Positions 1 to 47,263 of a stretch of 58,678 nt of DNA are shown in pieces. How positions within the stretch are numbered: the stretch's first letter is position 1; each line of letters opens with the position of its first letter. The stretch spans positions 1-58,678 of the forward strand of contig DJPS01000016.1 of NCBI GenBank assembly GCA_002438625.1, given 5' to 3'. The DNA is from Christensenella sp. UBA6406. Its GTDB lineage: Bacteria; Bacillota; Clostridia; Christensenellales; UBA1242. Below the pieces are notes generated by a model. The model was given only the letters and a program-made list of their open reading frames with translations, ran no database searches and was not told where the DNA came from. A program made the position numbers and the translations under genes.

Positions 1-101
1 AATATTGAAACAACATCCACAACGGAAAACCACCAATCTTCCTTATCCGCATCCCATTCGGCTCTTATCTTTTTATCTTCAAAAATCTTAATATCAGGCA
101 T
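1..101 (-). CDS. 5' end of a gene truncated by the window edge (MPDIKIFEDKKIRAEWDADKEDWWFSVVDVVSI...); function not assignable, with a weak resemblance to N-termini of Bro-N/antirepressor-like proteins
   Basis: ATG at 101..99 is preceded by GGAG about 7 nt upstream. The frame is open to position 1. A TGtTATAAT extended -10 lies on the minus strand at 129..121. It is absent from the ORF track because fewer than 60 aa are visible. Confidence 0.45.
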   Translation of the reverse strand, partial: MPDIKIFEDKKIRAEWDADKEDWWFSVVDVVSI

Positions 102-221
102 AAATTTCTCCTATAATTTGATTATAACATAAACTATAATTGTTTTGTATTAAATTTTTGCAAATACTTTAATTTTACATCACTAAACAAACAACACAAT
201 AATTTTTCCAAATTTTTTTAT

Positions 222-262
222 AAAAAAAGGGGGGAAACGATTAACGCTTAGCCCCCTTTTGG
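222..262 (-). terminator. Candidate intrinsic (bidirectional) terminator downstream of the TasA-like gene
   Basis: A G-run at 229..234 pairs with a C-run at 252..256. It is flanked by an A-run on one side and a T-run on the other, so either strand has a stem followed by U-rich tail. The loop is rather long. Confidence 0.45.
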
Positions 263-472
263 TTTTTTGTTGCAGTGGTATCAACAACAAAACTTTTATA
301 TTTTTTCTTTAACCACTGCAATGGTACCGAATTTGTATGAGCAAGTCGTCTGTGGTAGTAACTTGCTAATACTATTGTAAATAAATATGTTTGTACTAAA
401 CAAAACATTTTCCACAGGTGCAACCACCATTAAATGATTGCACCTAATCAATTTCTAATGATTTAGAAATTA

Positions 473-1132
473 TTACTTAGCATTTGCTTGTGTTCCAGCA
501 GTTGCCCAAACTTTATCACTTGCTAAACCAGCAGTTAAAGCAGCACTAACATCAGTACCATAATCTTTAGTTAAGTGGTCTGCTTGAATTGCTTGCACTG
601 TAATAGTTAAAGTTACAGTTACATTTTGCCAAGAATTGTCATAATTAGCAGCTGTAAATATAATTGTTGCACCATCAGTACCATAATCTAAAATAGCTGT
701 ATGTTGCACATCTGCATTTTTAGCGATAAAACCATAGTATGTCTTATCTGCATCATTATATGTCATATTTGCCTTACCCTTAAAATAAGTATTTGCAAAA
801 ATGTCATTTATCAATGCATCAAGATTCAATCCTGCATCACTGCTTTCAGCAGCTAATTTGACGCGATAGAAAGTGTTTACATTGCTTTCCAATGTAGCTG
901 AACCTGAAACCTTGACAGAATCTCCAGGAACTATTTTACCAGTCTCAACTTGTGCAATAGCCAAATCGTTACCAGTAATTTTAATTTGACCAAAACTAAT
1001 AGATGTTTCACTACTTTCCTTGTTAGCAGTGAAATAAGCGAATGTTAGAGTTGCAGATAATGCAACTAGTAGCAAGATTACTGCTGACATAGCAACAACT
1101 AACTTGCTTTGTGATTTTTGTTTCATTTTCAT
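473..1132 (-). CDS. TasA/camelysin-like (peptidase M73-like fold) secreted protein with a SipW-dependent-type signal peptide
   Basis: The N-terminus is MKMKQKSQSKLVVAMSAVILLLVALSATLTFAYFTANKE, i.e. a basic n-region, a hydrophobic core and the AYF(T/S) motif typical of SipW-cognate signals. A PGDS motif is present and the terminal strand is ...TLTITVQAIQADHL, as in TasA/camelysin. The SD AAGGAG lies upstream of ATG 1132. Confidence 0.7.
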   Translation of the reverse strand: MKMKQKSQSKLVVAMSAVILLLVALSATLTFAYFTANKESSETSISFGQIKITGNDLAIAQVETGKIVPGDSVKVSGSATLESNVNTFYRVKLAAESSDAGLNLDALINDIFANTYFKGKANMTYNDADKTYYGFIAKNADVQHTAILDYGTDGATIIFTAANYDNSWQNVTVTLTITVQAIQADHLTKDYGTDVSAALTAGLASDKVWATAGTQANAK

Positions 1133-1940
1133 TTTTATTTTATCTCCTTATAAAATTGTTTGATAGTTAAGGTTAAGCATTTACCCTAACTACTAAAATG
1201 TGATTATTTGGTTTTATGCAAATATAAAGATAAAGCAAGTTGCAAAATATTTAAGCGGACTTAAAATTTAGAGCAAATTGATTTTAACTATTTTTGCATT
1301 TTGATTGTTTTATACATTTTAGTTTTTACTATAAAATTTTCATTTTAATTTTGACATAATAATTTCCTTCCCCTTTCTTAAAGCAAATCACAATGCCATA
1401 GCATTCAAACATTTTACAATAAAGACAAAACTTTTCTTTTAAACTTTTTGCATTATATTACATTTACAATTACGCATAACAATTTATACCGCCAGTTAAA
1501 AAGCAATTAAATAGACTTTATTAAATTACAAATTTAAACTTGCCAATTATCTCCTAGGCTGACTTTTAGCAAACTTAAAAATGCAATTAATTTATGTACT
1601 TAGCAAACTCTTATTGCGTGCTGAAAAATCTTAAAGAACTAGACTTTTGGGAATTTAATAAGTAGGTAAACTAAATTAAACTAGCACACCAAACACACCT
1701 GCAAAAATATTTAATTGTTTTTAATAAGCGACATAAGACCATTAAGCATAAGCGTAAAAATAATAGTCCTGCAAAAATTTTAAGCGATAAATTTTGAGAT
1801 TAATGTTTATTGTTTTTCGCTAATTGCAAAGTTATCCACCCGCCAAATTTAAAGCACTTACCACGGCACTTTAAAGGGCAATTTACATCTAAACATATTT
1901 CTATATTTAGACCTAAGGGCTAACTAAGATGTCACTATCA

Positions 1941-1968
1941 ATTATACCCCCCCCCGCCTAAAAGTCAA
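1941..1968 (-). promoter_or_regulatory. Near-consensus sigma-A type promoter whose spacer contains a G9 homopolymer
   Basis: On the minus strand: TTGACT (1968..1963), a 16-nt spacer TTTAGGC+G9, then TATAAT (1946..1941). A T8 run (A8 on the + strand, 1977..1984) sits just upstream of -35 like an UP element. It points toward the TasA-like gene about 800 nt downstream. Confidence 0.55.
1947..1955 (-). repeat. Homopolymeric G9 (C9 on the + strand) tract
   Basis: Direct reading gives attata-CCCCCCCCC-gccta. It has the same flank (TAGGC-G9 on the minus strand) as the tract at 47230..47238. Confidence 0.95.
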
Positions 1969-2172
1969 GCAAATGCAAAAAAAACACAAAATTTTTTAAA
2001 ATTTTCTTAAAAAACCCCTTTTTTGCCTCCATTTTTGAACAAAACACCCACCGTTTGTCCAATAATTTTTACCCCTTAAAAGCCCCCATTTTTAGCAATT
2101 ATCCCCAAAACAGCACCAAAACTTATAAAACACTCCCCCAAACTTTGCCCAAAATACCACCACAACACCACA

Positions 2173-2215
2173 CAAAAAAGGCAAAGTGAAGATTTTAATC
2201 ACTTTACCTTTTTCT
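2173..2215 (-). terminator. Intrinsic terminator hairpin, copy A of a 43-nt direct repeat
   Basis: On the minus strand: GGTAAAGTGA-loop-TCACTTTGCC followed by T6. It abuts the TAG stop (2216..2214) of the Toprim-like gene. It is 42/43 identical to 4318..4360. Confidence 0.65.
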
Positions 2216-2972
2216 ATAAATTATATTTTGATTTATGTGTTGTTACTTGGTTATAAAATGTTGTTGGATTATATTCAACCAAATATAATATGAAAGTATT
2301 TATAACATAAATCCAGCCATTTGAGTTTAAAAGGCTTAATTGTTTATCAAACAAATCAACTTGTTTTGCGTTATAAATAAAGTCTTTGGGTGGCAATTCA
2401 AATTTGCCATTTAAAATATAATGTAATTTTAATAAATGGTGATATGCCAAACTTACAAATAAGGCATAACTATGGTGTTCCACACAAGTATAATTTGAAA
2501 TATTGCCCACAATTTCCTTATAATTCTTTGCATCTTCTTTTGTTATTATTACATCTTTAAATTCATTATTTGGCAATTTATTAAAATGCCTATAAGACTG
2601 CATCATAGGATAATTTATATATATTTTTCCATTTTCAGTTGACTCATTAAAATATAAAGCCAACTTCCTTATAAGGTCAAAATGCGGGAAATCTTGTTGT
2701 GGTTCAAAATCAAAAACCAAAATAATATCGCTAAAATTTTGGGATAATATTTCCTTTTTATCACTATCTTTTTCTATTGATTTTAAAAAAAGTTGAATAT
2801 CAAAATCATCCTTAATTTCCCCATTTTTAGCGATTAAATTTGCTAGATTATGCAAGTTTGTTTTATAGGAAAAAATTTCATAATTTTTTAAGTCTTGACA
2901 AATTGAAAACAATCTATTTATAAATTTTACTTCATCATTTTCACCTTCTACGATAAATAAAATTTTACCCAT
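2214..2972 (-). CDS. Toprim-like protein of the RloB / AbiLii / DUF4435 (AriB) class
   Basis: The N-terminal motif is KILFIVEGENDEVKF, a Toprim catalytic-Glu strand (compare the RloB EGEKTE motif). An acidic strand ILVFDFEPQQD follows, then IYINYPMMQSY. ATG 2972 has GGAG 6 nt upstream, whereas the track start at 2975 is a TTG. The gene overlaps the ATPase stop by 8 nt, consistent with translational coupling. Confidence 0.55.
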   Translation of the reverse strand: MGKILFIVEGENDEVKFINRLFSICQDLKNYEIFSYKTNLHNLANLIAKNGEIKDDFDIQLFLKSIEKDSDKKEILSQNFSDIILVFDFEPQQDFPHFDLIRKLALYFNESTENGKIYINYPMMQSYRHFNKLPNNEFKDVIITKEDAKNYKEIVGNISNYTCVEHHSYALFVSLAYHHLLKLHYILNGKFELPPKDFIYNAKQVDLFDKQLSLLNSNGWIYVINTFILYLVEYNPTTFYNQVTTHKSKYNL

Positions 2973-4095
2973 CAAATTCTCCGCTTCTTAATAATTTTTC
3001 TAGGTTATGTGCTTCCCTTAATTCTCTTGCAGTTCTATCAATAAACGAATCTATTTTTTTATTATCAATAATAAAGTAGCAATCTGGTCGTAAAACATTG
3101 TTGCTTGCAATATAAGTGTTATGAGAAGTTAATAAAACTTGAATATTTTTCATTTGTTTAAACATTTCAACAACTTTTTTAGATAGTTCAAAGTGATAAA
3201 AAGCATCAAATTCATCAATAAATAAAAGACTTACATTATTTAATTGTTGATACCAATAAAATAATATTGTCATTGCTATTGTACCAGAAGAATTGACTAA
3301 TGCGAAATCTAATGCCTTATCACCTTTATCATTTACCATAACAAGCGTTTTTTGCGGTAATATGCCTGATGATATTGCAACATCTAATTTAACATTTAAT
3401 TTTGCATATGTGTTTAAAAATTCTTCCAATTCTTTAACTTTATTATTTTCAATTATCCACGCAATAATTTGTTCTGCACCATTTGAAATTCCAATATAAG
3501 CGTTTTCTTGTAATGACCTAAAATAAAGCATTCTGCTAGCGAAATCGCAAATAAATTTAATTATAGAATCTTGCTTATGAGAACCGTAAGCAAGCATATA
3601 TTTTATAAATGAAATGTCAAAATGATAATTATCATAATTAAACGAATCAAAGTCAATTTTATCAACATTTAGGCTTATAAAAGATTTTTTGCTTAAATCA
3701 CAACAAAATATTTCTTGATTTGCAACAGTTAATTTTTCGTAAATTATAGTTTTTGGGTCTTTTTTTCTATACTCGTAAACTATTACAACATTGTTATATA
3801 TAAACTCGTAAGTAAAAGTAGCAAATTTTTTTGAAGAATTAAAATTTAAAAAACTTCTTTTATCTAGTTGCCTTATATTCACATTATTAGCTGTTAAAAC
3901 TGAAACAATATCAAATAGAGCAAATGCAAGATTACTTTTTCCGCTTCCATTTTTTCCAAAAATAATAGCATTTTTAATTATACCTTTATCATTAATTGCA
4001 TCTTTGTTAAAATCGTAATCGTGTGATTTTGTTAAATCTAATGTTATTTTATTTTTAAATGATTTATAATTTTCAACACTAAATTTTGTTAGCAT
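2965..4095 (-). CDS. ABC-type (AAA_21/AAA_15-like, OLD/RecF-like) ATPase, partner of the Toprim-like gene
   Basis: Motifs present: Walker A GKNGSGKSN, a signature-like SSGT, Walker B/D-loop LLFIDEFDAFYH, and H-loop LLTSHN. The likely start is ATG 4095 (MLTKFSVENYKSFKN) with GGAGGG 6 nt upstream. The track start at 4152 is a TTG lying inside the predicted promoter. Confidence 0.75.
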   Translation of the reverse strand: MLTKFSVENYKSFKNKITLDLTKSHDYDFNKDAINDKGIIKNAIIFGKNGSGKSNLAFALFDIVSVLTANNVNIRQLDKRSFLNFNSSKKFATFTYEFIYNNVVIVYEYRKKDPKTIIYEKLTVANQEIFCCDLSKKSFISLNVDKIDFDSFNYDNYHFDISFIKYMLAYGSHKQDSIIKFICDFASRMLYFRSLQENAYIGISNGAEQIIAWIIENNKVKELEEFLNTYAKLNVKLDVAISSGILPQKTLVMVNDKGDKALDFALVNSSGTIAMTILFYWYQQLNNVSLLFIDEFDAFYHFELSKKVVEMFKQMKNIQVLLTSHNTYIASNNVLRPDCYFIIDNKKIDSFIDRTARELREAHNLEKLLRSGEFDG

Positions 4096-4123
4096 TGCTT
4101 TCCCTCCAAATGTATACACTTTT

Positions 4124-4152
4124 AGTTTACACTCCTTTGCTTTAAAAGTCAA
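4124..4152 (-). promoter_or_regulatory. Candidate promoter of the two-gene cassette
   Basis: On the minus strand: TTGACT (4152..4147), a 17-nt spacer, then TAAACT (4129..4124), about 25 nt upstream of ATG 4095. Confidence 0.4.
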
Positions 4153-4317
4153 TTAATTTTTAAATCTTTCCGTAATTTTTTTACGGATACATTTAATTAT
4201 AATCTTTTGATTGAAATTTTATGCTTTAATTGCTATAAATAAATATTAATATTTTATCTATCACATTATAACATACAAAATTATTAAATTAAAGTTTTCC
4301 TGCCAACCGAAACATAG

Positions 4318-4360
4318 CAAAAAAGGCAAAGTGAAGATTTTAATCACTTTGCCTTTTTCT
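4318..4360 (-). terminator. Intrinsic terminator of the 3956-aa gene, copy B of the 43-nt direct repeat
   Basis: On the minus strand: a perfect 10-bp stem GGCAAAGTGA/TCACTTTGCC followed by T6, about 65 nt downstream of the stop at 4424. Confidence 0.7.
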
Positions 4361-4423
4361 TAATTGTTTAATTTTATTTAATTTATTTTTATTACAATTT
4401 TAAATTGCTGTCATTAATTAAAA

Positions 4424-7400
4424 TTAAATATATTCTTCAATGTTTCGTTCTGAGCCGACTTGATTGCTTTTATCTAATGAGCCATAACCGCAAACCTTAA
4501 TTAATTTACTGAAATTTTGATAGTAATTGTTAATAATTTGCGTAAAACTTACGCTCTTAGTTATTGCACCAATTAAAATGCCATATTGTGTGTTTGCATC
4601 TGCTTCAAGTTCTGTTGCGTTGCTTAACCTTATAAAGTTATTTTCAATATGCATATTTTGTGCTTTTACATAGCCGACTATGCCTCCAACCCTTATAGGT
4701 TCTTTATTTGCCCCTACAAAGTTTGCTTTTATTGCACCATCAAAGATAGAATTAACAATTTTTGAACCTTCTGCATAGCCAACGAAACCGCCAACATATG
4801 CATAATTTTCATTTTGACTTATTCTTAAAGTTACATTCTTAACATTAACTTTATTGATTGTTGACACTGTTGAAATGCCTGCAATAGAACCTAAATAAGT
4901 TTTGCCTTCGCTTTGTTCTGTTTGGTTTAGAGTTATTGTTAAGCCATTAAATGTTACATTTTTAATTGCTGAACTATCCACTCTACCAAAGAAACCTAGT
5001 GAAATGTCGTTATCCTTGCCTGCTGTTTCGCTTAGCACAACATTTCTTATTGTGTAGCCTTTGCCATCAAAAATGCCTTTAAATGGAATTTCAAATGTAC
5101 CTAAACTTTGAACTGGATTACCATTTATTGTTGTTAAATTATTGAAATCAATATTTGTGCCCAATTCAAAAATTCTACCATCGCCACCATTTGGAATAGT
5201 GCCATTTCTAATTTGAATAGCAATATTTACAAGTTGAGATGCTTTTGTTATTATGTGCGTTCTTATGCCATCAAAACCCGTGTTTGTATCTGGTTCTTCT
5301 ATTGAAACTTTTTCCACCCATGAATGTGTTGGGTAAGATGCTGGCAAGTTATCCAAATTCCAATTTGCCGTAACTAACCAAGGATTTGTTGAACCGCTCC
5401 AATTTGAAGAAGTTTGATAAAATGATAATTGATTAAAGTTATCACTTGAAGAATTTATGCTCTTATAAACCTTTGTTAGTTTCATTGATACGCTAGAATC
5501 GTAAGCCAATAAGTTCGCACTATTTAGTGTGCCTGAATATAACTTAGTCCACGAATTGATTATGTTTGTGGTTGTTGTGCCTTTTGCAATTAGCCCGTAA
5601 ACTTTTCCGCTTACGCCATTTGCAATGCTAGCATTTAATATATTTGCATAGCAATTTGTTATATTCACACCTTGTGAAGATGTTGCACCAATAAATGCTG
5701 AAACATTTGCATTTGCATTTATATTAATCTTATCAACTGATGTGTAGCAACTTTGGACTGAACTTGCTCCGCTTGTTGTGCCGAACAAGTAACCGCCCAT
5801 AGCACCAACAGCAATCGTATTTGGATTTGCCACTGTAATTGTTGCCTTAGACACTGAAACCTTGCTTAAAATTGAGTTTGTTGCAAAGCCCACAAGACCG
5901 ACATAAATTGCATCATCATCTTCGCTTACATTAAATTCAACGCCATTAAAGGCAATATTTTTAAGTGTCATTCCGCTTGCATAATTTATAAAGCCTGTAT
6001 AGATATCGTTGTTGTTTTTAAACTTAACATTAGAAATCGTGTAGGTATTCCCGTCAAAAGTGCCCCTAAATGCATTCATACTTGAACCTAGACCTGCAAA
6101 GTTTGCACCTGCAAAATCAATGTTTCCAGCAAGCATAAATGTTATGCCTTTTGCACCATTTGCAATGTATCCATAATTGATTAAAGTTGATAAAATTTGT
6201 AAATCTTTAACTGAACTAATTAAATAGCATTCATAAGAAACGCTTGTAAGTTTCTTAAATATATTCAACTTGTTCAAATCAACTTTTGTAACTTCTATAT
6301 CTCTTAAAACTGGCGTTTTGCTATCTCCATTTTCAAATTCAAAGTTTGAGATTAAATGCATTAAGAAGATTTGTGTTTTCATTCCTTTAATTTTTACGCC
6401 GTTTCTTGTCCAATCTTCATAAATTGGAGTGCCATACGTTTGATTAACTGCTTTTTTACCATCGCTAAGCATTTGCAATAATTCATAGCCATTTCCATAT
6501 GTGTTTACGCCTTTGCTGTAACCATCTGGCACTGCCATTTGCGTGTTTGCGTTGTTGCTTAGAACGGCAACATCGTTAATTACAATATTTGTTGCTATAT
6601 CGTTTGCTTTTTCTATGTTTGGCGTTGCAGTTTTATAGACAACTTTATTGAATGAATTTGCAAATAATGAATTATTATCATTTGCTTTTAGTGGAGCGAC
6701 ATCGTTTATTGTGCCAACCAAGCCGACAAGTCCGCCAATTTGCGTTTGTTCGTATTCTTCCAATTTAGTATAATCGTAACTTACAAGTGAAACCGCATTA
6801 TTGATTTCTAGCACATTTGTTGCTGATAGCAATTTAACCACATTTGTATTCACTTCATCATCCACATAAACATTATCAAATTTTTGCGTATAAATGAAAT
6901 TGTTTGCAAGAGAGCCAACGATTCCGCCAATATACTTATAATAATATGTTGATATTGTTGTGCCTGGATCATAAGTTGCTGTATCACTATATTTAATATA
7001 AATTGTTCCGCTTGCATAAACATTTGAAATTACACCGCTTAAACTGCGACCAACAATTCCGCCAGCGACAAGAGCGTATTCATCTTTAATATTGACTTTT
7101 GAATATGAATTAGATATATTACCGCCATTATTAAAGCCAACCAATCCGCCTATTGCTGTTGCCTTGCCATCTATTCTATTTGAATCAGTTATTCCAACTC
7201 TATAATAATCATTATTTGCTATTGTGTTGAAATATCCAACCGCTTCGCCCGTATCAATAACGCTTTGGACATCATCTTCATATTGAATAAATGATTTATC
7301 TATTTTTCCTCTATTTTCAGATGCTAAGCCACCAATCATACTTATACCTTTAATGAACATATCATCTGTTACATACACTTTTGCATTGCTAACGGCACTT

Positions 7401-10400
7401 GCTTTATCTATAAGCCCGAAACCGCCACCAACCATTTCGCCAATGACTGTAACGCCGTTTGTGATGCTTACACTTTGGACTTTACTGCCCACAAGCACGC
7501 CAACCACGCCACCAGCATATGACACCTTATCAGCAACGGCACTTTCGTATAGATATGTGTTTGTTGCCCTATAACCTGCATTGACTGAAAGTTCTGTGTG
7601 AATGTCCTTGATTACACTATTTTCACTATATCCCGCAAGTCCGCCTGCCATATTCTTTCCGTGCACAATCGCTTCACCAGATAGAGAAATATTATAAACT
7701 TTGCTGTTATTAATTGTCCCCGCAACTGTTCCAACCTTTTGGCATGCACTACCAAACATTTCGTCCGCTTTTATTGTTACATTTTTAAATACTGCATTAT
7801 CAAGCGTTCTAAATAAGCCCATATTGCTTAAATCACTTGCTTCATCATTAGAATTTAAATAACTATTTCTTAAATTTGCAATTTGCATTGCATTTCCTTC
7901 AAAATAGCCATTAAAGTTAATCTTATAACTTTCTGCCATTATTACATCTTCGCTGAAATCAATGTCGCAAGCCATTATATAATATTTATCATTTCCGCTT
8001 GATGAAGCAGGTTCTAGCACATACGTGTTGAAGTCGCTTGCACTATAAATTACATAAGGATGTTCAACACTTCCATAATTTGCACCAATTAATGATGTAT
8101 AAATATATTCAGGTTGACCGCCCGTTGTGGTTACCGTAACCAAATCTACATAACCACGAGAAATAATGTTAGCAGATGTGATTGTCGGTTTTCCATAAAT
8201 GAATTTTTGTCCTTTATATGCACTTGTTGTGCTTGCTTTTGTTGTTGGAATAAACCAAACACCATTTACACTATTTTCATTTACATTGCCATTAACTTCT
8301 GTATCAAATGCAAAACTTTCAAATGTATCAATGAAAGCAAACTCTTCTGCCGTTTCAATCATTGTTGCAGGCTGACTATCTTGATATGTGTATTTACCCA
8401 TTAAGAAATATGCACTTATAATGTCTCCTGTGTTATTTACATTGTTATAATCATCTAACCCAATATATGGCATATCTTGCACACTGTTTTCTCTTACAAT
8501 GCTTGTGCTATATGTGTTTTTAATGCTTCCACTGTTTGTGAACACAAAACCCGCTGTTGGAGCATTAGAGTTGATTCTTATATTAGAATAACAGTTGCTA
8601 ATTTCGCCCGCATTTTCATAAACGAAACCGCCCACACGGCTTACCGCATTTAATTCTATTTCAACATTATCTCTATTTGCAAAATTATATTTTCCTTCTA
8701 CAAATGAAAGAGCAATTCTTCCGCTGTTAGAGCCAACCAAACCGCCGACTTTGCTATATTCGCTTGCACTTGTATAACTGTAAAGGATTGCTTTGCTGTA
8801 ACAACTTGAAACAACACCAGAGTTTTGCCCCGTGATTGCACCAACAACCCCGTAATTGTGGAATTTAACATTTTCTTCTATTCTGCTATTTGCGATTGTT
8901 CCATTGTTTTCGCCAACCAAAATACCCATTGTGCTTTCTACAAAGTCGCTATCAACCGTGGTTAATGTTATCCTTACTTTTAAGCCTTTTGCACTTGCAG
9001 GGATTGCATTACCAGACACCGTTGTGGTTGTTTCCGCTAAATTTGATGAAATAATTGTATTTTGATAATCATATGGAGAAATAACTTCCTTACCATTTAT
9101 AACTCTTTGAACGATTGCAGAAGAAACTTCTTCGCCAGCATATGAAACACTGCAATTATAGATGCTTCCATTGTTTACAGCGGTTAGCAAACCAAATATA
9201 ACTTGACTATAACCTTCCGCATCAATCTCCAAAGTTGAATTTCCAACAATTAGATGAATATTTTCAAATATTGCGCCTTCATAAATTTCTGTAAATAAAC
9301 CTATTTGCTTAGAACCTGACCTATTTTCAAGTTCTGTTTCATCTTTGTAACTATTGATAGTTATTGTATGATTATTACCATTAAAAGATTTAATTTGCGT
9401 TGAAATTGGCTTAAAGTTATCTAAAACTAAATCAGTCATTAATATATAACTTATGTCCGCTTCCATTGCATAAAATTCATTTTCATTATAGATAGGTACG
9501 GCATTTGTTCTATCTGTATTTAGATAAAAATTTACCGTAAACACCCTATCTAAAATTTGATAAACTTTTCCGTTTGCAATATATTTATCCGTTAAAAGTG
9601 CAGATAAATTCTTATCATCCCTATAAATATTCTCTATACCTGATTTTTCATAAACCCATTCTTTTGTAACTCTATCAAAACTAAACTTTAACTTTGCTGA
9701 GATGCGTTTTTGATTTGAATCCTTATTGTCATAATTCACCCCTGTAACATAAAGGTCTTTTGATGTTATACTCTTAGAATTTACTTCAAAATATGCATTT
9801 TTATAATATTTACCTATTGCAACATCGTTGCCCGTGTTGCTTGCCTTGTAAGCATACCAAGTGTTGAAATCTGATGTGCTTAACTTTTCTAAATCTGCAA
9901 TAATTTTCGCCCTTATTGCATCGTTTGTTTCATCATAGAAGAATTTAGATTTTTCAAAACTTAACTTTAATGCATAAGTTCCTCCAAAAACTTCTCTCAT
10001 AACATTGTTTGAAACATTTTCAAAACCAATGTCCTTAATTACATAATCTACAACTATAAATTCTAGCGTATCAGTTGCAGTTTTTGTTAATTTGCCAATT
10101 CTCTTATTTATTGTTGCCTTAATTTCCACAACATCACCAACACTTGCAAGAGAACTAACATTTAGTTTATAAGCATTTGTTCCCTTAACTTTCGTAACGC
10201 TTGCATATGGATAATTAACGCCATCTTTTGTTACGTCAAAACTTACATCGCCATCGTATTCAAAGAATGACACACCAAGTTCGCTCTCCGTTCCAAATGG
10301 CATATAAATTTCATTATTTTGTTTGCTTGTTTCGCCATTTAAACTTAGGTTGACTTTTGGCAAATAAGCACAATCTAACACTAGATCATAAGAATAAACT

Positions 10401-13400
10401 TCTATTTTTTCTCCATTAGTTTCCTTATAAGCCGTGATTTTAACAGTATAAGATTTTTTAGTTGTTTCACTAGCAACAAGCATAGACACATAATATTCAC
10501 CATTAACGCCACGCACAAGTTGCCCGTTTCTATAATACGCATTCACTAATGTGATACCGTTGACAAGATAGTTTCTATCTGCAAGGCGTTCATATGGATA
10601 AGAATTTATTGATTTTGAATCATTTTTAACTAATTGCTCGAAAGACATTTCACTATTTGTAACTTCAATATAATCAAAATCTGCATAAATAGGGAAAACA
10701 TTGATTGACAACAACGCATTATAACCAGGAATTATGCTACTGCTAGGTTCTTCGGTTGGATTATAACCATTGTCCCCCATTACATCCCTTTCAGCGTATG
10801 TGTAAACCTTTGTTTCAGTCCTTTGAATGTTTTCTGGCATAAATGTCAAATAATATGTTAATTTAACTGATGGCTCAGTTTTTGCTGATAAAATGATTGT
10901 AAATCTTGTTTCTTCTTTAATAAATTTACTTTCATCGTTTAACTTTAATGTTAAGTTATAGTCTTTCGTTTGATTTTGTTCATCCATAGCACTTAAATTT
11001 GAAACTAAATCAAATTTAGCACTTGATAAATGACCGCCAGTATAACTTGAAACAAGCCTATTTTGAGCATCTAATATTGTAACTAAAACATCATCATTAG
11101 GGTCATCAGTGTGAAGCCTTGCCTTTATATCAATTTCCGTGCCCGCTGAAATTGTTGTGTTTTCTTCGCTAAGGAATTCAAAGTCAGTTGCTCCCAAAAT
11201 TACGCCAATGTTAAATTGCTTAGTAAATCTATCATCTTCAAAATAATCACTTAAATAAACTTTTTCGCCACTTTCAATAACTATATAAGGTCTTGCTGTA
11301 ACTCTTGCAAGTTTGCCCCCCATTCCTTCAAGTGCATTTACAATGTGCGTTAAATAGTAATCAATAGTAACAGCATTTTCGCCCGCACTTTCGCTTGATT
11401 CAAATGTGAAATATTGCGTGTAATCACCTAAATCGCACTCAACTTTATATTCTACATAAAGGTCTGTTGCAATGCTTGCACTTACGCCATTAACTTTTGC
11501 AGTTACATATGGCCTAATTTGATAGTTATCGCCCTTCTTTATCCTTAAAGTTGTCAATTTTTCAGCACCTGACAAAACATTGTTGCCTTGATACATATCA
11601 AAATCTAAAACTGGATAAGTGGCATAAATATTTATAGATGCAAATACTTTTGCACTTAATTTAGAAGTTACAGTTATTCTTGCACTTCCTGTACCTACAA
11701 CATTAAAACTTCCATCACTTAAAACTTTTACAACATCTTCGTTTGCACTTGTAACTTTAAGCCTATTAACATAACCAGATGTAGGCAATACATTTGCACT
11801 AATTAAATCGCTAATCTTATAAATATTGTAACTTAATAAAGCAAGTTTATCATTTACATCGTTTGATGTGTAATAGAATAGAAGCATAGACTCGTTGCCC
11901 ACTTTATAAGCATTAATCACTATTTCAATGCTCTTAGGTGGTTGTTGAACTAGTGCAAAACCATCTATTTCCAAATAAGGCAATAAACCTGTTTTATTCC
12001 AAATTGAACCGCTAAAACTATTGAAATTGTCAGTTGGAGAACCTTTTGCATCAAATATAATTGGTGCGTTTTCACCAAACTTAGCATATGAACTTGTAAT
12101 TAAATAATCATTTCCATTTACAATAAAAGTTGCATTATTTTTATTTTGCATATAAGAGTTATCTAGGTTTACAAATCTTGCATAACCTATCATTCCACTT
12201 AGTGAACCTTGCGCAATAGCAACAAAATTTGTGTAGGCATATCTTATAACCATATCCACAGATGCAGAACCATAAGCATAACCTATAAGCCCACCAACAT
12301 TGCTAACACCAACAACATCACCAGCATATTCATTTACTGAACTTCCTGCACCTACAACTCTATCTTTATATGTTGCACTATAAACTTTGCTAATGCTTCC
12401 GCCAACTGCATAGCCTATAAGCCCACCAACATTAGTGTTTCCTTTGACATTTACGGCATCATCACCAAAACTCTTTCCATCTTCATAAGATTGGACATAA
12501 GAGTTTTCCAAATGCCCCGCATTCATTCCTATTAGTCCGCCAATATTCTTCGTTCCCCTAACAAGAGATGAAGAGAATGCATTATATATTTTTCCATCAT
12601 TACCATTTATGCCCACCAAACCACCAACATTGTTTAATCCATAAACAACATTGTCTGTAGACACATTCATAATGCTTCCATTGTTTTGCCCAACAAGTCC
12701 GCCAATTATTGCATTTTCGCTAAGCACTGCATTATTGTAATAGATTCCATTATATTCATTATTAATATTTGCTGTTACATCTATTCCCTCGTCTTCAAAC
12801 AAAGAACTAAATATAACATCATTTCCATTCTTTTCGTTGTAAATGCTTTTAATATAACCATCGTTTTGTCCAACCATTCCACCGACATAATAAGTTGAAT
12901 GATATGTATCTTCGGCTGACATTCCAGGAATTTGGAACTTAATCTTGTCCACAATAATTATATCTCCACCACTTACTGCGTTTGTTTTGCTTGTATACAA
13001 TATATCTGCACTATTTTGACCTAATAAGCCACCAACATAAGCAGTGTTTTTACCAACATAGTATTTGAACTCGCCCAAAACAACATTAACATTAATTACA
13101 CCAAACTTGCCTGCAACTTCTGCATTTTCTCTATCTGATTTATATAAATTATCACAAGAGAACTTGCCTGCAACCGCACCAACATATACCTTGTAATCTT
13201 TGTTGTTGCTAAGCACATTTATTCCACTACAATCCACTTTTAAAACTGAAACCTGCAAAGTTAAATCGCAAATTGTTCCAATTCTTGGCACTGTATCGTA
13301 AACTTTTTTACCAAATACATTTTCACTAGATGAAATTTGTGCAAATAAACCAAAATAATCTTCATCTTCATTTTCTTTTATATCATTTGAAATTATTGAT

Positions 13401-16742: not shown

Positions 16743-19700
16743 TTAATTTTGTAAATAACTAGGTTCACCTTGTGCACCAGCACCGCCAGATTGCTCTTCG
16801 CCACCGACATCAACATCATACTCTCCAACAGTTCCATCATCTCCATTAACTTTATTACCATTGTAACCGCCGTTACCAGAACGCCCACTATTTTTGCCTG
16901 CATGATAACCTTCCCAAAGCAAAACTCCAAAAAACTCCGCTTTGAAATGACTTCCATCTCCGCCTTTTGTTCCTTTTCCGCCATCTCCACCAGGGGCACA
17001 TTGTAAATCTATCGTAGAACCTGATGCTTTATATGAAGATGATGAAGGATTTAAACTTGTTGCCCCATAAGAGTTACCAATAAATGCATAACCACCATTT
17101 CCGCCATTTCCTCCATCGTTACCCTTTGTAACATCGCTACATGAGTGTACACCTTTACCCCAATCACCATGCGATAAAGGGCATTGTATGTGATTTGTTC
17201 TGCCATAGCAACAACTTGTTGCATCATCTTTACCATCGCTACCATTTCCGCCACGACCTGCGGCAGTACCGTGATCGCCATCACTAACAAAGTCAAATGA
17301 GCCACTGTTTGTGTTTCCTGATAAATTACAATTTGCATTTATGCCAACAATTCCGCCAGCAATTACATTACCGCCATTTCCGCCCTTCATACCTTTTTTA
17401 GTTTCTGGGTCAAAACCTTTGGCATTATCGCCATTTCCAGCATGTCCAGTAACAACTTTACCAGAATTTGAACAAGAACTTATATTCACATTGTTTGCAT
17501 AAGCAACCAAACCACCAACTGGACTAGCATTAAAGCCATTGTTCCCATCAGTATAATCAAAATTTGTTAAAATTTTAATCGTTTCATTCTTTTGCAATGT
17601 AAATGTTTTAAATGAAACAGTCGCTTGTACATTTGATGCACTTACTTTATCTACACTATTATTCATTAAAACAGTTTCGTAAAAATTTGCATCCAAAGCA
17701 CTATCACCTGTAACTGTGCAACCATTGTTTTTAGAACTTGTTAAATTTCCATCTGACATAGCACCGCAAATTCCGCCAGCAAGACCCAAGTTTCTTGCAT
17801 AAATTGCATCTCCACTTGATGTTGCCTTAGCAATCATATCGTACGCTGTTACACTTAAATTAGAAGTTTCGCAACTTGTTATATTTGTGCTTTCTGCATA
17901 ACCAACAAGTCCACCAACAACATTTGCTGTAAGTTTTGTAGTTGTTAAGAAAGATACTTTTACTTTTGATATTGTGGACTTAGAAGCAATAGCACATAAA
18001 CCACCTGAATAAGATAAATATTTACTCATATCCGCAAACATTACATTTGTAGATGCACTGCTTGAAGAATAATATCTTTCATATTCTGTCATCATATTAC
18101 TTCCAGCACTTTCTAATTGTAAATCTAAATTAGTTATTGTAGCATTATCAATAACATATAAGAATCCCATCATAAGAGCAGAGTTATCTCCGTTACTTAC
18201 CTTTTTAGAATCTATTGCAATTCCTTTAAGTTTCTTATTGTTACCATCTAATGTGCCACTGAAACCAGCAGCAGATTTAGGGTTCCAAGCCTTCTTAGTT
18301 TCGCCCTTAACATCAAACCCATGTTGATTTATGTTGTATGCAAGTTTAATCTTAACACCCGCTTTATAGTCCGTATCCATTAATTTATAGAATGCACTGA
18401 AATTATTTACATATGTATAACCACCAGTTATAGTTGTTCTTATAAAACTGTCAAACCTAGGGAAATATGCATAGCCAAAGTTTTTAGTGCTATTTCTACA
18501 AACATTATTTGTATTTTTATTGGTTGCATATAGCAAATAATAAGAACTTCCCGTATTTATCGTATCTGATAAATATCTATCAAATGCAAGTGTTTTTAAT
18601 GAACTTGTAGAAGTTGCAATGCTATTTCTCGTAACTGCCTGTGGGTCAAAACTGCAATATACAAACTTAGTTTTACTATCGGCATATCCAACTACACCTG
18701 CATTTCTACTTGATAATGTTGTATCTAAACTTGTAACAGAGTTTACAAACTTAAATAAAGTATTTTCACTTCTACCAACAAATGTACCTGCATAATTTCC
18801 ACTATCTACAACTAATCCACCAAGAGTGAAGCAGTTAAAGATTGTACCATCTTCACTTGTAGATGCAATTATTCCGCTTGTCCCACTAGAAATAACTTCT
18901 ATATCTGCAATGACATTTAATATCATACCATTGTTTGTTGTAACCACACCACCAACACTTGAACCTTGCACCTTTCCAGTTGCATAAAGGTCGTGGACAA
19001 CACCATTGCTTGTATCTGCAACCATTGCACTAGAAATGCCACTTGATGATGTTGTTTTAACCGCAAAGTTGCCAACAACACCATACTTACCAATTTTGCT
19101 AAATAACGAATCGCTAACAGTAATTTGTTTATAATTACCCGCAAAAACACCATTAATTGATTTAGAACTTGTAACAGTAATATCTCTTGTTAATAGGTGA
19201 TAAGTTTTGCTACTACTTAAAATTCCGCTAGAACTTGAAACCCTAATAGGATTAAACACCGTTCCACTTTTAATAGTGATAAATTCTTTAATGTATTGAT
19301 ACATCATATCTGCACTTCTATCAAACTCATCTAAGAAATCAACATAATCCAATATATTATAGGAATCACTATTCGCAAATCTTATAGTGTTATCATCGCT
19401 TGTCAACAACTTGCTACTTTCAAACCTAGAACCAGTAACTTCATCTACCACAGTTATACCATTGTTTCCGCCCTTGTAGTTATTTACACCCGCAAGCACA
19501 TCAATGTTATATTTGTTCTTGTTTTCGTTTCCGTATTCAGGCTTAACAATGGTTGTTAAGATTGTCGTGTTTGAAATTGAATCTCTTGTGTCTCCCGCTA
19601 TACCACCAGCATAGATATGTTCAAACTTAGAACCTGTGCTGATATCTATATATCCAGAAGCAACGCAATTCTTTATTTCTAATGAACCAGAATCTTTGTA

Positions 19701-43755: not shown

Positions 43756-46700
43756 TTATAGTTGAATGAATAAGGCAGGGGCTACACATATATATTCAAG
43801 CGAAACGCCTTTCCCTGCTGTTGCAATTCCACCATTCTCACCCACACAAGCGGCAGTTCCTGAATATTCCGTTTTTGTACGAATCCAGTAATAACTTGTA
43901 ATATTTTTACTAGGTCTAGCACCTAATGCTCCTGTTGCGCCAGCATAATCTGATGCATATTTTAGCCTTTGAGATACATTATTATAATAGGTTTTAAAAT
44001 CTCCTATAGATGGAATAAACACATAATCGCCACTATCTACATCTCTTGCATAAACTGTTTTATCGTTTACGTTACTAGTTGAAAAACTTCCTGTATCTAA
44101 TGTTGTTGGCATAATTTTACTTTTTTGAGTTCCTTCTACAAATGCAGAATCTTTAAATTCTCCGTTCAAATATGGTTTGATATCACTTTCTGTATATGGC
44201 ATTTTGCTTGATAAACTAAACGGCATTGCGAACAAAGATGAAATACTATTTAAGTATGCAACATTATTTGTTTCATCTGTATAAAATATTTTCCATATAA
44301 TTGGTTCTATTCTAAAATAATAATCTTTTTTTAGTATATTATATCCACTACCCCAACTAAAGTAATTATATACACTGGTAGCTGGACTTGTGTCAGTTAG
44401 TTCGCTTGTTGGAGTTGCTTTTTTCTTTACATACAAATAGCCATCATCACCTTCATAACATTCATTAAAAGTTGCAAATTGTTTTACTTTTGTTGTATCA
44501 ATAGTTGTTTCGTTCGGTTTAACTGTTTGAGGATAATATCCAAATGCGATACAATTACCCGCACTTTCAGCACCGCTTTCATCTACACTAAAATATTCTG
44601 TTGGAGATTTTGCCATTGCATAACCGCTCGAATTCCAACTTGCTTTTATTGAACTTAAATAAGTGCTATAATCACTTGATATGCTACCTCTTACATACCC
44701 ATTATAATATGAACTTGAAGTATTGTAGAAATCTTTTAATTTTACCTGTACTTTTACATACCAAGTTACATTTTCACTATTTAAAAATTCATTAAGCAAA
44801 ACACCTTTTTCATCTGTCATTTGATTACCATCTTTATCAAAATAACCAACAAACTTATATTTATCATCTGTAATTGTAAAGGTTGGTGCTGTTGCCTTAT
44901 TTTCTTCATTATAACTTGTTGCACTATTGTAAAGTTGCTTTGAGTTATGTTCGCCATATAAAGTAGTGTTCTCTTCGCTTGAAAAGTTCCCCTTATCGCT
45001 TACACTATCAGCATTAAATATAATTGTAGGTCTTGAAATTGTTACAGTTACATTTGGCTCTTCTAGGTTATAATTTTGAAGGACATCTATTTCACCTACA
45101 AGTTCAGCCGTAACTCTTACCGCTTTATTTTCACCTGCACCAGCAGTATTTATCTCTCCGCTAATTTTTCCCAAAGTAATATTATCAGTGCCTTTAATTC
45201 CTATTATTTTTCCGCCACTAACTTCAACACTTGTTTTTCCATTTGCAAACCTGTCTGTCGCTTTTAATTCCTCTATTTTTAATGTTGCTTTTGTTATTTT
45301 AAATTCAACAATTTTTTGACCAACATAATCGCCTATACCTATAAAATACAATTTCGCCGTATTTGTAACATTTATAGATGCAGTTATTACAATATAATCC
45401 ACATCTTTAACCAAGTTACTTCCATTATAAGTAATGGTGTATGATGGCAATGAATTTGATGAATCATATTCTTTATCCTGAGCTACAACGTTTGCGTCCT
45501 TAATATTTTTCGCTTCTGTTATTTGCAATGTATAAGATGCTGTTGAAACTTTTCCATTTAAATCAGTTGCACTTGCACTTATGATTGTTGTGCCAACTTT
45601 TAAAATATGCACAAGCCCTGTTGCACTGTCAACTGTGGCAATATCCGCTGAACTGCTATTATAAACAATTTCCACATTTTCAGTTGATACACATTTTAAA
45701 GAATTTATAAAATCGGCATCACCTAATTTTTTAATAACTGTTGAATTATTAAAACTTAATTCTATTTTTCCCCATTTTGGCTTTAATGTTATATCACCAT
45801 ACATTTGTAAAATGACTTCTTTTGCTTTTACAATTTGGGCAAAATTCCAGTTTCCTCCCGCTTCCACAACTTCCCAACCAATAAAATATTGATTATTTTC
45901 ATCATTAGTTGTTATTTCAGGTAATGACAAATTTGTATCTGCTAAACTGTAACCAATTTTATAAGTGTTTGTTGTGCTGTCTAAACATGAAGATAATTGA
46001 TTTTTATATGCTTCATTTTGAGACATATCAAAAGTGATTGTATAACTTAACGCTTCCCATACCGCATATAATATTATTGCATTTGTTGTTATTTCAGTAT
46101 TTTCAATGGTTATTTTACTATTATTTACAGCATATGTTGTTGCTCCAAATTTCCAACCACTTAGTTTATAGCCTTGTTTTGTTGGTGTTTTATCTATTGC
46201 TATTTCTATTGTTTCATTTTCTTTTGTTACATTTTGTGCTGATGGCGTGCTATTCTCATCTCCGCCATTTACATTGAAAAATACTTTTATTGTGTTATTA
46301 TTCCCACTATATTTTGCATATAGGGTTATATTTTCTGTAACTGTATAATTCTTTCCACTTACACTTTCTTCCGCTGTGCTATTTGCGAGTTGTGTGAAAT
46401 TTTTGTCTTTATACCAAGTTACATCTACGCCTCCAACTTGTGGCAATATTGCAACTTTACTTTCATCACTATTTAAGCATATATAACTATCTACACTTAC
46501 TCCTCCGCAAGTGTCGTATTTAACTATATATCCTGCTTCTGTATATTGCCCAAATATATTGCTTAAATTTATTGCCTTTTCTAAATCTTCTACACTTTCA
46601 ACATTCTTTGTTTCGCCTTTGTCTGTGTATTGCAAATTACTGCTTTGCACTGCTTCTGCTTTTATTTGTAAACTTACACCATTTGTGCTTAAATTATTCC

Positions 46701-47112
46701 CAAATTGTGTTAAGTCTTGCATTTGTAATCCGCTTGCAAATAAGTTATATGTCTTTACTTCACTTGCAGACATTTCCTTTAATGCAGATTTTTCATAATT
46801 TGTTAAATATAGATAGCCACCACTATATTGCCAACCATAATCTTCTGTGCTATTTGAATATGTTGCTTCTAGTGGCAAAATGCTATTTAATGCTATTGCT
46901 GTCTTTTGACTATTTTCATCTTCTCCACTGTAATTAACCTTAATTCTTACGTAACCATTTAGTCCGCTACCTTCCGCTAACTTAACAGCAATGCTACTGA
47001 ATAAGTTGCTACCTTGCTTAACTTCATCAATCTTTATTTGTTTTGAATTTGTTACATTTTCATTATTGTTTACAATTAGATTTACATCTAATTTTTCAAA
47101 CGAAAAAAACAC
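43756..47112 (-). CDS. Large surface protein/adhesin body: TasA/camelysin-like N-terminal domain, Listeria-Bacteroides (Flg_new-type) repeats, a Big_2-like domain and a DUF6273-like C-terminus. It is separated from its start codon and signal peptide by a frameshift in a G9 tract.
   Basis: The TasA-like domain ends ...SLQIKAEAVQSSNL (compare TLTITVQAIQADHL in the 219-aa protein). Repeats carry G(Y/W)-type motifs (KQGYKLSGWKF, YFIGWEVV, YKFVGYFD). A Big_2-like segment reads ADIATVDSATGLVHILKVGTTIISASA. The C-terminus reads YYWIRT...YICVAPALFIQL. The track start at 47112 is an internal GTG (Val) of a frame that stays open up to 47259. Confidence 0.75.
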   Translation of the reverse strand: MFFSFEKLDVNLIVNNNENVTNSKQIKIDEVKQGSNLFSSIAVKLAEGSGLNGYVRIKVNYSGEDENSQKTAIALNSILPLEATYSNSTEDYGWQYSGGYLYLTNYEKSALKEMSASEVKTYNLFASGLQMQDLTQFGNNLSTNGVSLQIKAEAVQSSNLQYTDKGETKNVESVEDLEKAINLSNIFGQYTEAGYIVKYDTCGGVSVDSYICLNSDESKVAILPQVGGVDVTWYKDKNFTQLANSTAEESVSGKNYTVTENITLYAKYSGNNNTIKVFFNVNGGDENSTPSAQNVTKENETIEIAIDKTPTKQGYKLSGWKFGATTYAVNNSKITIENTEITTNAIILYAVWEALSYTITFDMSQNEAYKNQLSSCLDSTTNTYKIGYSLADTNLSLPEITTNDENNQYFIGWEVVEAGGNWNFAQIVKAKEVILQMYGDITLKPKWGKIELSFNNSTVIKKLGDADFINSLKCVSTENVEIVYNSSSADIATVDSATGLVHILKVGTTIISASATDLNGKVSTASYTLQITEAKNIKDANVVAQDKEYDSSNSLPSYTITYNGSNLVKDVDYIVITASINVTNTAKLYFIGIGDYVGQKIVEFKITKATLKIEELKATDRFANGKTSVEVSGGKIIGIKGTDNITLGKISGEINTAGAGENKAVRVTAELVGEIDVLQNYNLEEPNVTVTISRPTIIFNADSVSDKGNFSSEENTTLYGEHNSKQLYNSATSYNEENKATAPTFTITDDKYKFVGYFDKDGNQMTDEKGVLLNEFLNSENVTWYVKVQVKLKDFYNTSSSYYNGYVRGSISSDYSTYLSSIKASWNSSGYAMAKSPTEYFSVDESGAESAGNCIAFGYYPQTVKPNETTIDTTKVKQFATFNECYEGDDGYLYVKKKATPTSELTDTSPATSVYNYFSWGSGYNILKKDYYFRIEPIIWKIFYTDETNNVAYLNSISSLFAMPFSLSSKMPYTESDIKPYLNGEFKDSAFVEGTQKSKIMPTTLDTGSFSTSNVNDKTVYARDVDSGDYVFIPSIGDFKTYYNNVSQRLKYASDYAGATGALGARPSKNITSYYWIRTKTEYSGTAACVGENGGIATAGKGVSLEYICVAPALFIQL

Positions 47113-47263
47113 ACCATCAACTTTGTTTGATGCCGTAAAATACGCATAACTTATTCCAAATCCTAAACTTGCAAGGAATGCTATAACTACTACAGATATA
47201 ATTATACCATATATTGTATTTCTAGTCTGCCCCCCCCCGCCTATTTTGTGGTTTATCCTTCAT
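47113..47263 (-). other. Displaced 5' end of the adhesin gene: SD, ATG, G9 tract and SipW-type signal-peptide coding segment
   Basis: GAAAAGGAG lies 9 nt before ATG 47263. That frame reads MKDKPQNRRGGAD-stop (TAG at 47224..47222). Downstream of the tract, the body frame encodes GQTRNTIYGIIISVVVIAFLASLGFGISYAYFTASNKVDG and continues into VFFSFEKLDV. Confidence 0.75.
47230..47238 (-). repeat. Homopolymeric G9 (C9 on the + strand) tract within coding sequence
   Basis: Direct reading gives ctg-CCCCCCCCC-gcctatttt. The minus strand reads AATAGGC-G9-CAGACT. Confidence 0.95.

Follow-up and report, generated by a model that had tools for sequence, protein, structure and literature searches.

Phase variation by repeat slippage is textbook biology in the small-genome pathogens Neisseria, Haemophilus, Campylobacter, Helicobacter, Treponema, and Mycoplasma. 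The vlp genes of Mycoplasma hyorhinis form a multigene family whose 5' region and signal peptide are highly conserved, whereas the mature part varies. They encode lipoproteins, and a polyA tract of about 17 to 20 A residues in the promoter spacer sets their expression ON or OFF. In Neisseria meningitidis, the porA promoter carries a polyG tract between the -35 and -10 elements, and shortening of the 17-nt spacing abolishes transcription (PMC7864442). The Treponema pallidum gene tp0126, which codes for an OmpW homologue, also has a polyG tract between its -35 and -10 elements, where a spacing of 17 nt is optimal; in the same species, the tract of tprL varies from 7 to 11 G residues within isolates and is mostly 9 (PMC7864442). 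Campylobacter jejuni (31% GC) has 303, 18, 0, and 4 loci of G5, G6, G7, and G8, respectively, and 11 to 29 polyG tracts per genome (PMC3401435). The modal length of these tracts is 9, with a mutational bias towards 9: insertions prevail at G8 and G9 and deletions at G10 and G11, and the tracts mutate at rates of about 1e-4 to 4e-3 per division (PMC3401435). Within the Clostridia, Clostridioides difficile uses invertible promoters for pdcB, pdcC, and cmrRST, and a 2025 review of phase variation covers this class through DNA inversion in C. difficile (PMC11868660). Our own literature search, which was limited, found no repeat-based promoter switch in gut Clostridia.

We analyzed a 58,678-nt stretch of DNA from an uncultured gut member of the Clostridia (the window, meaning this stretch at its full length). 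The window makes up a whole contig and is chromosomal, as it carries gyrB, gyrA, secA, spoIIID, and an acyl carrier protein gene. On the minus strand, positions 1968 to 1941 read GCTTGACTTTTAGGCGGGGGGGGGTATAATTG. The first-pass annotation had described this site as TTGACT and TATAAT separated by 16 nt that include a G9 run, and the letters agree with that description; a promoter scan returned the site with 11 of 12 matches and a 16-nt spacer. It had also placed a T8 run just upstream of the -35 hexamer and the next gene at position 1132, about 800 nt away across a gap with no ORF of 60 aa or longer. Both statements proved correct. The T8 run (1984-1977) is part of an A/T-rich stretch and is separated from the -35 hexamer by 8 nt, and the gene begins 809 nt from the -10 hexamer, with no minus-strand ORF of 30 aa or longer in between. 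This gene encodes a predicted secreted protein of 219 aa that has 44 database relatives (the family), none of them with an informative name. Transcription would start near 1936-1933. No reading frame crosses the tract at 1947-1955, whether it is G8, G9, or G10. The coordinates of all features are collected in Table 1.

Table 1. Features of the G9 promoter, the gene downstream of it, and the second G9 locus, in window coordinates
Feature	Position	Strand	Remark
-35 hexamer TTGACT (5/6)	1963..1968	-	same letters in L100
Promoter spacer, 16 nt (TTTAGGC + G9)	1947..1962	-	spacer in L100: TTTTGC + G9, 15 nt
G9 homopolymer, proposed slippage tract (C9 on the plus strand)	1947..1955	-	G9 in 7/7 assemblies
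-10 hexamer TATAAT (6/6)	1941..1946	-	same letters in L100
A/T-rich UP-like region with A/T tracts	1977..2008	-	putative UP element
Conserved block TGACATCTTAGTTAGCC	1918..1934	-	begins 6 nt past the -10; kept in L100
Predicted intrinsic terminator of the upstream gene pair, 9-bp stem + T-run	2174..2207	-	hairpin scan
G/T-rich, C-poor region between terminator and promoter	2009..2172	-	strain-variable length
Long untranslated leader, about 800 nt	1133..1935	-	no ORF of at least 30 aa
Ribosome-binding site AAGGAGA of the 219-aa gene	1143..1149	-	kept in paralogues and L100
219-aa secreted-protein gene	473..1132	-	signal peptide ends AYFTA (1132 to about 1025)
Second G9 tract, in 5' coding region, preceded by TAGGC	47230..47238	-	also G9 in L012
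Full coding region of the predicted phase-OFF 1168-aa surface protein	43756..47263	-	ATG 47263; AYFTA-type signal peptide

[quoted passage not shown] By its structure, the locus is a candidate member of this known class of promoter-spacer repeat switches. The likeness to porA is close: in both cases, a G homopolymer occupies the spacer of a sigma-70-type promoter upstream of a variable surface-protein gene. However, porA belongs to a Gram-negative pathogen in which length variation and its effects on expression were established experimentally, whereas the present locus belongs to an uncultured gut member of the Clostridia, is known from sequence, and is G9 in every consensus. The locus would share with C. 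difficile the setting, phase variation in the class Clostridia. The C. difficile switches, in contrast, work by site-specific DNA inversion and not by slippage, and no inverted repeats flank the promoter described here. A repeat search of the leader gave AT-rich chance matches only and no inverted repeats that would hint at an invertible element. A G-quadruplex was considered and rejected, as the G-runs upstream of the tract are missing in the diverged assembly L100.

Upstream of the promoter lies a gene pair (2214-2972 and 2965-4095, minus strand) matching PDC-M12A and PDC-M12B (E = 6e-112 and 6e-40), which are related to AbiLi; the pair is a candidate two-gene defence system. Its predicted terminator would isolate the promoter from upstream transcription. 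Copies of 43 nt of the terminator region lie in direct orientation on both sides of the pair (2173-2215 and 4318-4360), and the same terminator thus occurs a second time after a giant ORF. In L100, the pair is absent and the promoter directly follows the giant 3956-aa ORF; the pair therefore looks like an inserted cassette. Two giant predicted lipoproteins encoded in tandem on the minus strand (4424-16294, 3956 aa; 16743-31886, 5047 aa) take up 46% of the window, and the giant ORF of L100 has the same length of 3956 aa. The region between terminator and promoter carries 114 extra nucleotides in assembly L005. These form a 22-nt tandem repeat of 4.7 copies (L005 5821-5925) with the consensus TTTTAGTGCAAAGTTGTGGCGG.

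The G9 promoter was found in seven assemblies: the window, four that are near-clonal with it (L002-L005), L010, and the diverged L100. Because five of the seven are near-clonal, only about three lineages are independent. L002-L005 come from four other samples and match the window at 100% identity from a point slightly before the promoter up to the start codon, and they therefore carry little information on conservation. L010, from another study, has a leader 96.4% identical to that of the window and keeps the G9. The most informative comparison was with L100, in which the giant ORF is 68% identical in nucleotides and 59% in amino acids and the family gene is 32% identical in amino acids. In the intergenic region of L100, two blocks alone still align with the window, the promoter with its G9 and the ribosome-binding site with the signal peptide. 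The L100 promoter block reads GCTTGACT-TTTTGC-G9-TATAAT followed by TGACATCTTAATTAGCC, with 85% identity over 53 nt, and the position equivalent to the UP-like region holds A8, A8, and A6 tracts. The order of giant ORF, promoter, and family gene is kept despite a differing distance from the -10 hexamer to the ATG (about 260 nt in L100 versus about 800 nt in the window).

A different type of promoter was present in front of family genes in the more distant lineage L096-L099. It reads TTGACA-AATTT-A9-CTT-TATAGT, giving a 17-nt spacer with A9 instead of G9, and it lies 194 nt upstream of the family-gene ATG. The A9 is found in 4/4 samples. Past the -10, the hexamer TGACAT, part of the conserved block in the window, sits at the offset found in both G9 promoters; TGACAT has 5 occurrences in the 13,536 positions of L096. 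The family genes behind this promoter are 34% identical to that of the window. On this evidence, the A9 promoter is apparently homologous to the G9 promoters. If so, the homopolymer was kept while its base was changed, which is more in line with slippage than with a site recognized by its sequence. Of the promoters described here, the A9 promoter is the one most like vlp; the vlp tracts are longer, however, and the vlp lipoproteins are unrelated to the 219-aa family. L099 has the same upstream region as L096-L098 with a different allele (P0030) behind it. Searches with floating-length tract patterns found no further copies in the JGI metagenomes or viral contigs scanned. Among species-representative genomes, the closest by SecA is L014, a roe-deer colon MAG named 'Clostridia bacterium' (87% identity), followed at near 58% by uncultured Christensenella and Candidatus Onthoplasma. 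L014 has no DNA in common with the window beyond secA and no long G/C run, and a family-profile scan of the species-representative genomes found no relatives of the 219-aa protein.

We then compared the proteins encoded downstream of the promoter. Across the family, the signal peptide is almost invariant (MK.KQN.QSKLVVALSAVILLLVALSATLTFAYFTA) and the mature part is highly variable. Three alleles occupy the locus: that of the window and those of L002/L003 and L010, which are 54% and 47% identical to it in amino acids. Their leader, ribosome-binding site, signal peptide, and 3' flank are 96 to 100% identical. The divergence spans the whole mature protein, and near-identity resumes straight past the stop codon. 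By these alignments, the 219-aa gene is a hypervariable cassette between conserved flanks, as expected of a surface antigen or contingency locus. In sample ERZ27300200, the conserved 5' end of the gene is where one contig stops and a second one begins (L005 and L001), which suggests mixed alleles or cassette switching within that sample. The paralogue contigs L001, L008, L009, L011, and L094 break off 15 to 100 nt before the start codon, and contigs of 750 to 1,500 nt carry many of the family members. Both patterns are expected if several copies per genome share identical 5' ends. The L094 paralogue neighbours genes for a reverse transcriptase (RVT_1) and for a member of the phage integrase family.

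The first-pass annotation had called this protein TasA/camelysin-like. With cut-offs of E ≤ 0.1 for Pfam and E ≤ 0.01 for NCBIfam, the 219-aa protein matched no family, and the TasA/camelysin sequence models (Peptidase_M73 and TIGR04088) did not recognize it. TasA was the top match in two more sensitive comparisons, neither of them significant. A 41-member family profile searched against the PDB gave TasA 8aur_A first (E = 0.69) and 5of1 with E = 1.6, and a Foldseek search with the AlphaFold model (pLDDT 81.8) also gave 8aur_A first (E = 0.023, probability 0.77, TM 0.32). A TasA-like identity of the 219-aa protein is thus only suggestive. No signal peptidase, of the sipW type or otherwise, was found among the window ORFs screened; a sipW gene could be present in another part of the genome.

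G/C runs in the window number 14, 2, 0, 0, and 2 at lengths of 5, 6, 7, 8, and 9, respectively, so that only two runs of at least 7 exist in 58.7 kb, both of them G9 (1947-1955 and 47230-47238). The second G9 begins 25 nt into a coding region that has a good ribosome-binding site and an ATG at 47263. Read with G9, this frame reaches a stop after 13 codons. Read with G8 it encodes 1168 aa, and with G11 it encodes 1169 aa. The restored frame runs via a signal peptide ending in SYAYFTA into an ORF that had been called from a GTG at 47112. When the repaired protein was aligned with its intact relative P0190 (E = 2e-31), homology began at residue 27, which still belongs to the signal peptide; in other relatives, the N terminus is extended by about 50 aa. 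Pfam detected Flg_new and Big_2 repeats in the 1168-aa protein, and its N terminus scored 18.1 bits against TIGR04088, the model of the SipW-cognate signal, for which the cut-off is 19. AYFT-type signal peptides were present in 2 of the 19 larger window ORFs screened, and both are linked to G9 tracts. The tract is G9 in both assemblies examined, the window and the independent MAG L012 (n = 2).

A change of one repeat at 47230-47238 toggles between a full-length and a truncated product, as in C. jejuni, where tracts also lie in the 5' coding regions of surface-related genes. From the frame logic, the second tract is predicted to be a standard in-frame slippage switch that is OFF in both the window and L012. 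The likeness to C. jejuni extends to low GC content (31% versus 32% here), few runs of G6 to G8, and a modal length of nine. The C. jejuni figures, however, are whole-genome tract counts with measured switching rates, whereas 58.7 kb were examined here. A placement of the second tract within a promoter spacer was rejected, as no -35 element fits. Both tracts are preceded by TAGGC (1956-1960 and 47239-47243, minus strand), and the tract of L100 is preceded by GC. Gene callers shorten the phase-OFF gene to 1118 aa (43756-47112), which loses the signal peptide, and such loci are systematically mis-annotated in MAGs. Five relatives from other organisms (P0175, P0189, P0192, P0193, and P0225) have N termini called inside or just past the signal peptide, like the OFF allele; these cut relatives may be frame-shifted at a 5' tract too.

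According to our model, a sigma-A-type promoter, insulated by the terminator and with the UP-like region upstream of it, would transcribe the long leader and the hypervariable 219-aa gene. Slipped-strand mispairing at replication would add or remove a G in the run, which fills 9 of the 16 spacer positions. [quoted passage not shown] G10 (17 nt) would be the optimal state, G9 (16 nt), the state of the window, an intermediate one, and G8 (15 nt) a weak one. The same genome would use its in-frame G9 to silence another surface protein, one whose signal peptide is of the same class. With moderate confidence, we regard a real promoter whose G9 slips to vary expression of the 219-aa gene as the best explanation. 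Likewise, there is a reasonable case for the G9 as a slippage-driven switch or dimmer. [quoted passage not shown] A slippage switch of the porA and tp0126 kind is plausible but unproven.

The first-pass annotation had named an invariant tract length as an outcome that would refute its claim, and at the consensus level the tract is indeed invariant among related strains. The consensus is G9 in 7/7 assemblies at this promoter, G9 in 2/2 at the second tract, and A9 in 4/4 in the distant lineage. This invariance is weaker evidence than it looks, since consensus assemblies give the modal length only and may hide mixed populations. The tprL tract, mostly G9 within isolates yet ranging from 7 to 11, illustrates that a G9 consensus can coexist with real heterogeneity. 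The T. pallidum tracts, however, were sized by fragment analysis and reporter-tested, and the tprL mechanism is not based on spacing. If G9 is a mutational attractor, tracts in different functional states would share one consensus length, and three such states were found at G9: the OFF frame of the second tract, a 15-nt spacer in L100, and a 16-nt spacer in the window. Because the two G9 lineages have the same tract with 16- and 15-nt spacers, tract length is not tuned to optimal spacing. We also counted against a switch that the 800-nt leader is unusually long and that promoter-like hexamers are common in this DNA.

The constancy of the tract leaves room for a real promoter in which the G9 is a length-stable cis element, serving as a spacer structure or as a site for a regulator shared by both AYFT-type genes, with expression regulated conventionally. 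Exactly G9 in every assembly, including two lineages that differ in spacer length, is what such an element would give. The shared TAGGC-G9 at both window tracts, with GC-G9 in L100, points the same way; we put the chance of the shared 5-mer at roughly 0.001 to 0.002, which is an estimate and not a computed test. A G-specific site would not, however, tolerate the replacement of G9 by A9 in the apparently homologous promoter of L096-L099. At the second tract, which is within a coding region, G9 disrupts the frame, and this fits a switch and not an operator. Moreover, hypermutable polyG tracts in C. jejuni and T. pallidum are known to have G9 as their mutational mode. We consider a stable cis element rather unlikely, though of the alternatives it is the one to be taken most seriously.

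We propose that transcription from the promoter reads through to the 219-aa gene. The alternative is that a real promoter makes a separate noncoding RNA or leader transcript, that the 219-aa gene has its own proximal promoter, and that the G9 does not control it. The 800-nt gap without an ORF would suit such a transcript, as would the leader of L010, which is 96.4% conserved while the coding sequence is only 47% identical in amino acids. The leaders of the window and L100 also share a short motif, a strong SD-like GGGGAA..ATTATT followed by ATGTC (window, about 1340-1375, minus strand; L100, about 2925-2965). The resulting mini-ORFs encode MSKLK* in the window and MSHKQQKN* in L100, and the rest of the leader is unconserved between the two; the shared mini-ORF could encode a leader peptide or be what is left of an earlier gene start. 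Several results argue against a separate RNA. Rfam gave no match on the window at gathering thresholds, and its one match in the leader was at chance level and on the opposite strand. Conservation of the leader does not extend to L100, in which the stretch from -10 to ATG is about a third as long, and yet the order of promoter and gene is kept. No terminator-like hairpin was found between promoter and gene in the window or L100 by the same scan that finds the control terminator, and neither leader holds a promoter of at least 10/12 matches closer to the gene. We therefore find this alternative improbable.

The footprint in L100, the hairpin-free leaders, and the lack of a closer promoter together make it very probable that the promoter is real and serves the 219-aa gene. 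Overall, we have high confidence in its being both real and linked to this gene. Of the earlier claim of a promoter upstream of a TasA-like gene, the promoter stands, supported by phylogenetic footprinting with L100; the TasA label is only suggestive. Outside the ribosome-binding site and the signal-peptide DNA, which are common to the paralogues, the 800-nt leader is not repeated, and a leader shared by all paralogues was rejected.

Promoter-like hexamers prove little on their own in DNA of 32% GC, as they occur at the shuffled rate: positions 1-4500 hold 29 such sites, 3 of them at 11/12, against 29.9 ± 5.3 in shuffles. Long homopolymers behave differently. Under an analytical first-order Markov model trained on the window itself, 0.055 runs of at least 9 are expected, so that the 2 observed are about a 36-fold excess (Poisson P of about 0.0015). 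The long tracts are over-represented, and both are tied to predicted surface-protein genes, namely those with AYFT-type signal peptides. The promoter G9 is present in six other assemblies made by different assemblers (SPAdes-style and MEGAHIT-style) in different studies, and it is therefore not an assembly artefact. A chance meeting of hexamers and G9 in AT-rich intergenic DNA, or a G9 produced by sequencing or assembly, finds some comfort in the shuffled-rate hexamers, but with the whole block kept in L100 next to a gene of 68% nucleotide identity, the identical G9 in seven assemblies, and the excess of long runs, it is very improbable and in effect already refuted by the conservation in L100.

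Taken together, these results predict, with good support, a well-known mechanism in an unfamiliar host. Tentatively, uncultured spore-forming gut Clostridia may maintain repeat-based contingency loci for AYFT-type secreted proteins, which possibly form TasA-like fibres. Such a set might comprise three parts, a promoter with a 9-nt homopolymer in its spacer, an in-frame G9 switch in the gene of a large adhesin-like protein, and replacement of the mature protein as a cassette bounded by invariant flanks; we offer this as a speculative reading. It is conceivable, at a similar level of doubt, that the spacer homopolymer has been kept in this capacity across deep divergence, as G9 in two lineages and as A9 in a third. 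If true, this would be, as far as our literature search goes, the first system of slippage-driven phase and antigenic variation in commensal Clostridia, in which the described switches are invertible promoters. If confirmed, it would mean that uncultured commensal Clostridia of the gut use the same bet-hedging device as the pathogens for their secreted or surface proteins, and the resulting variation could serve against phage, host immunity, or competitors.
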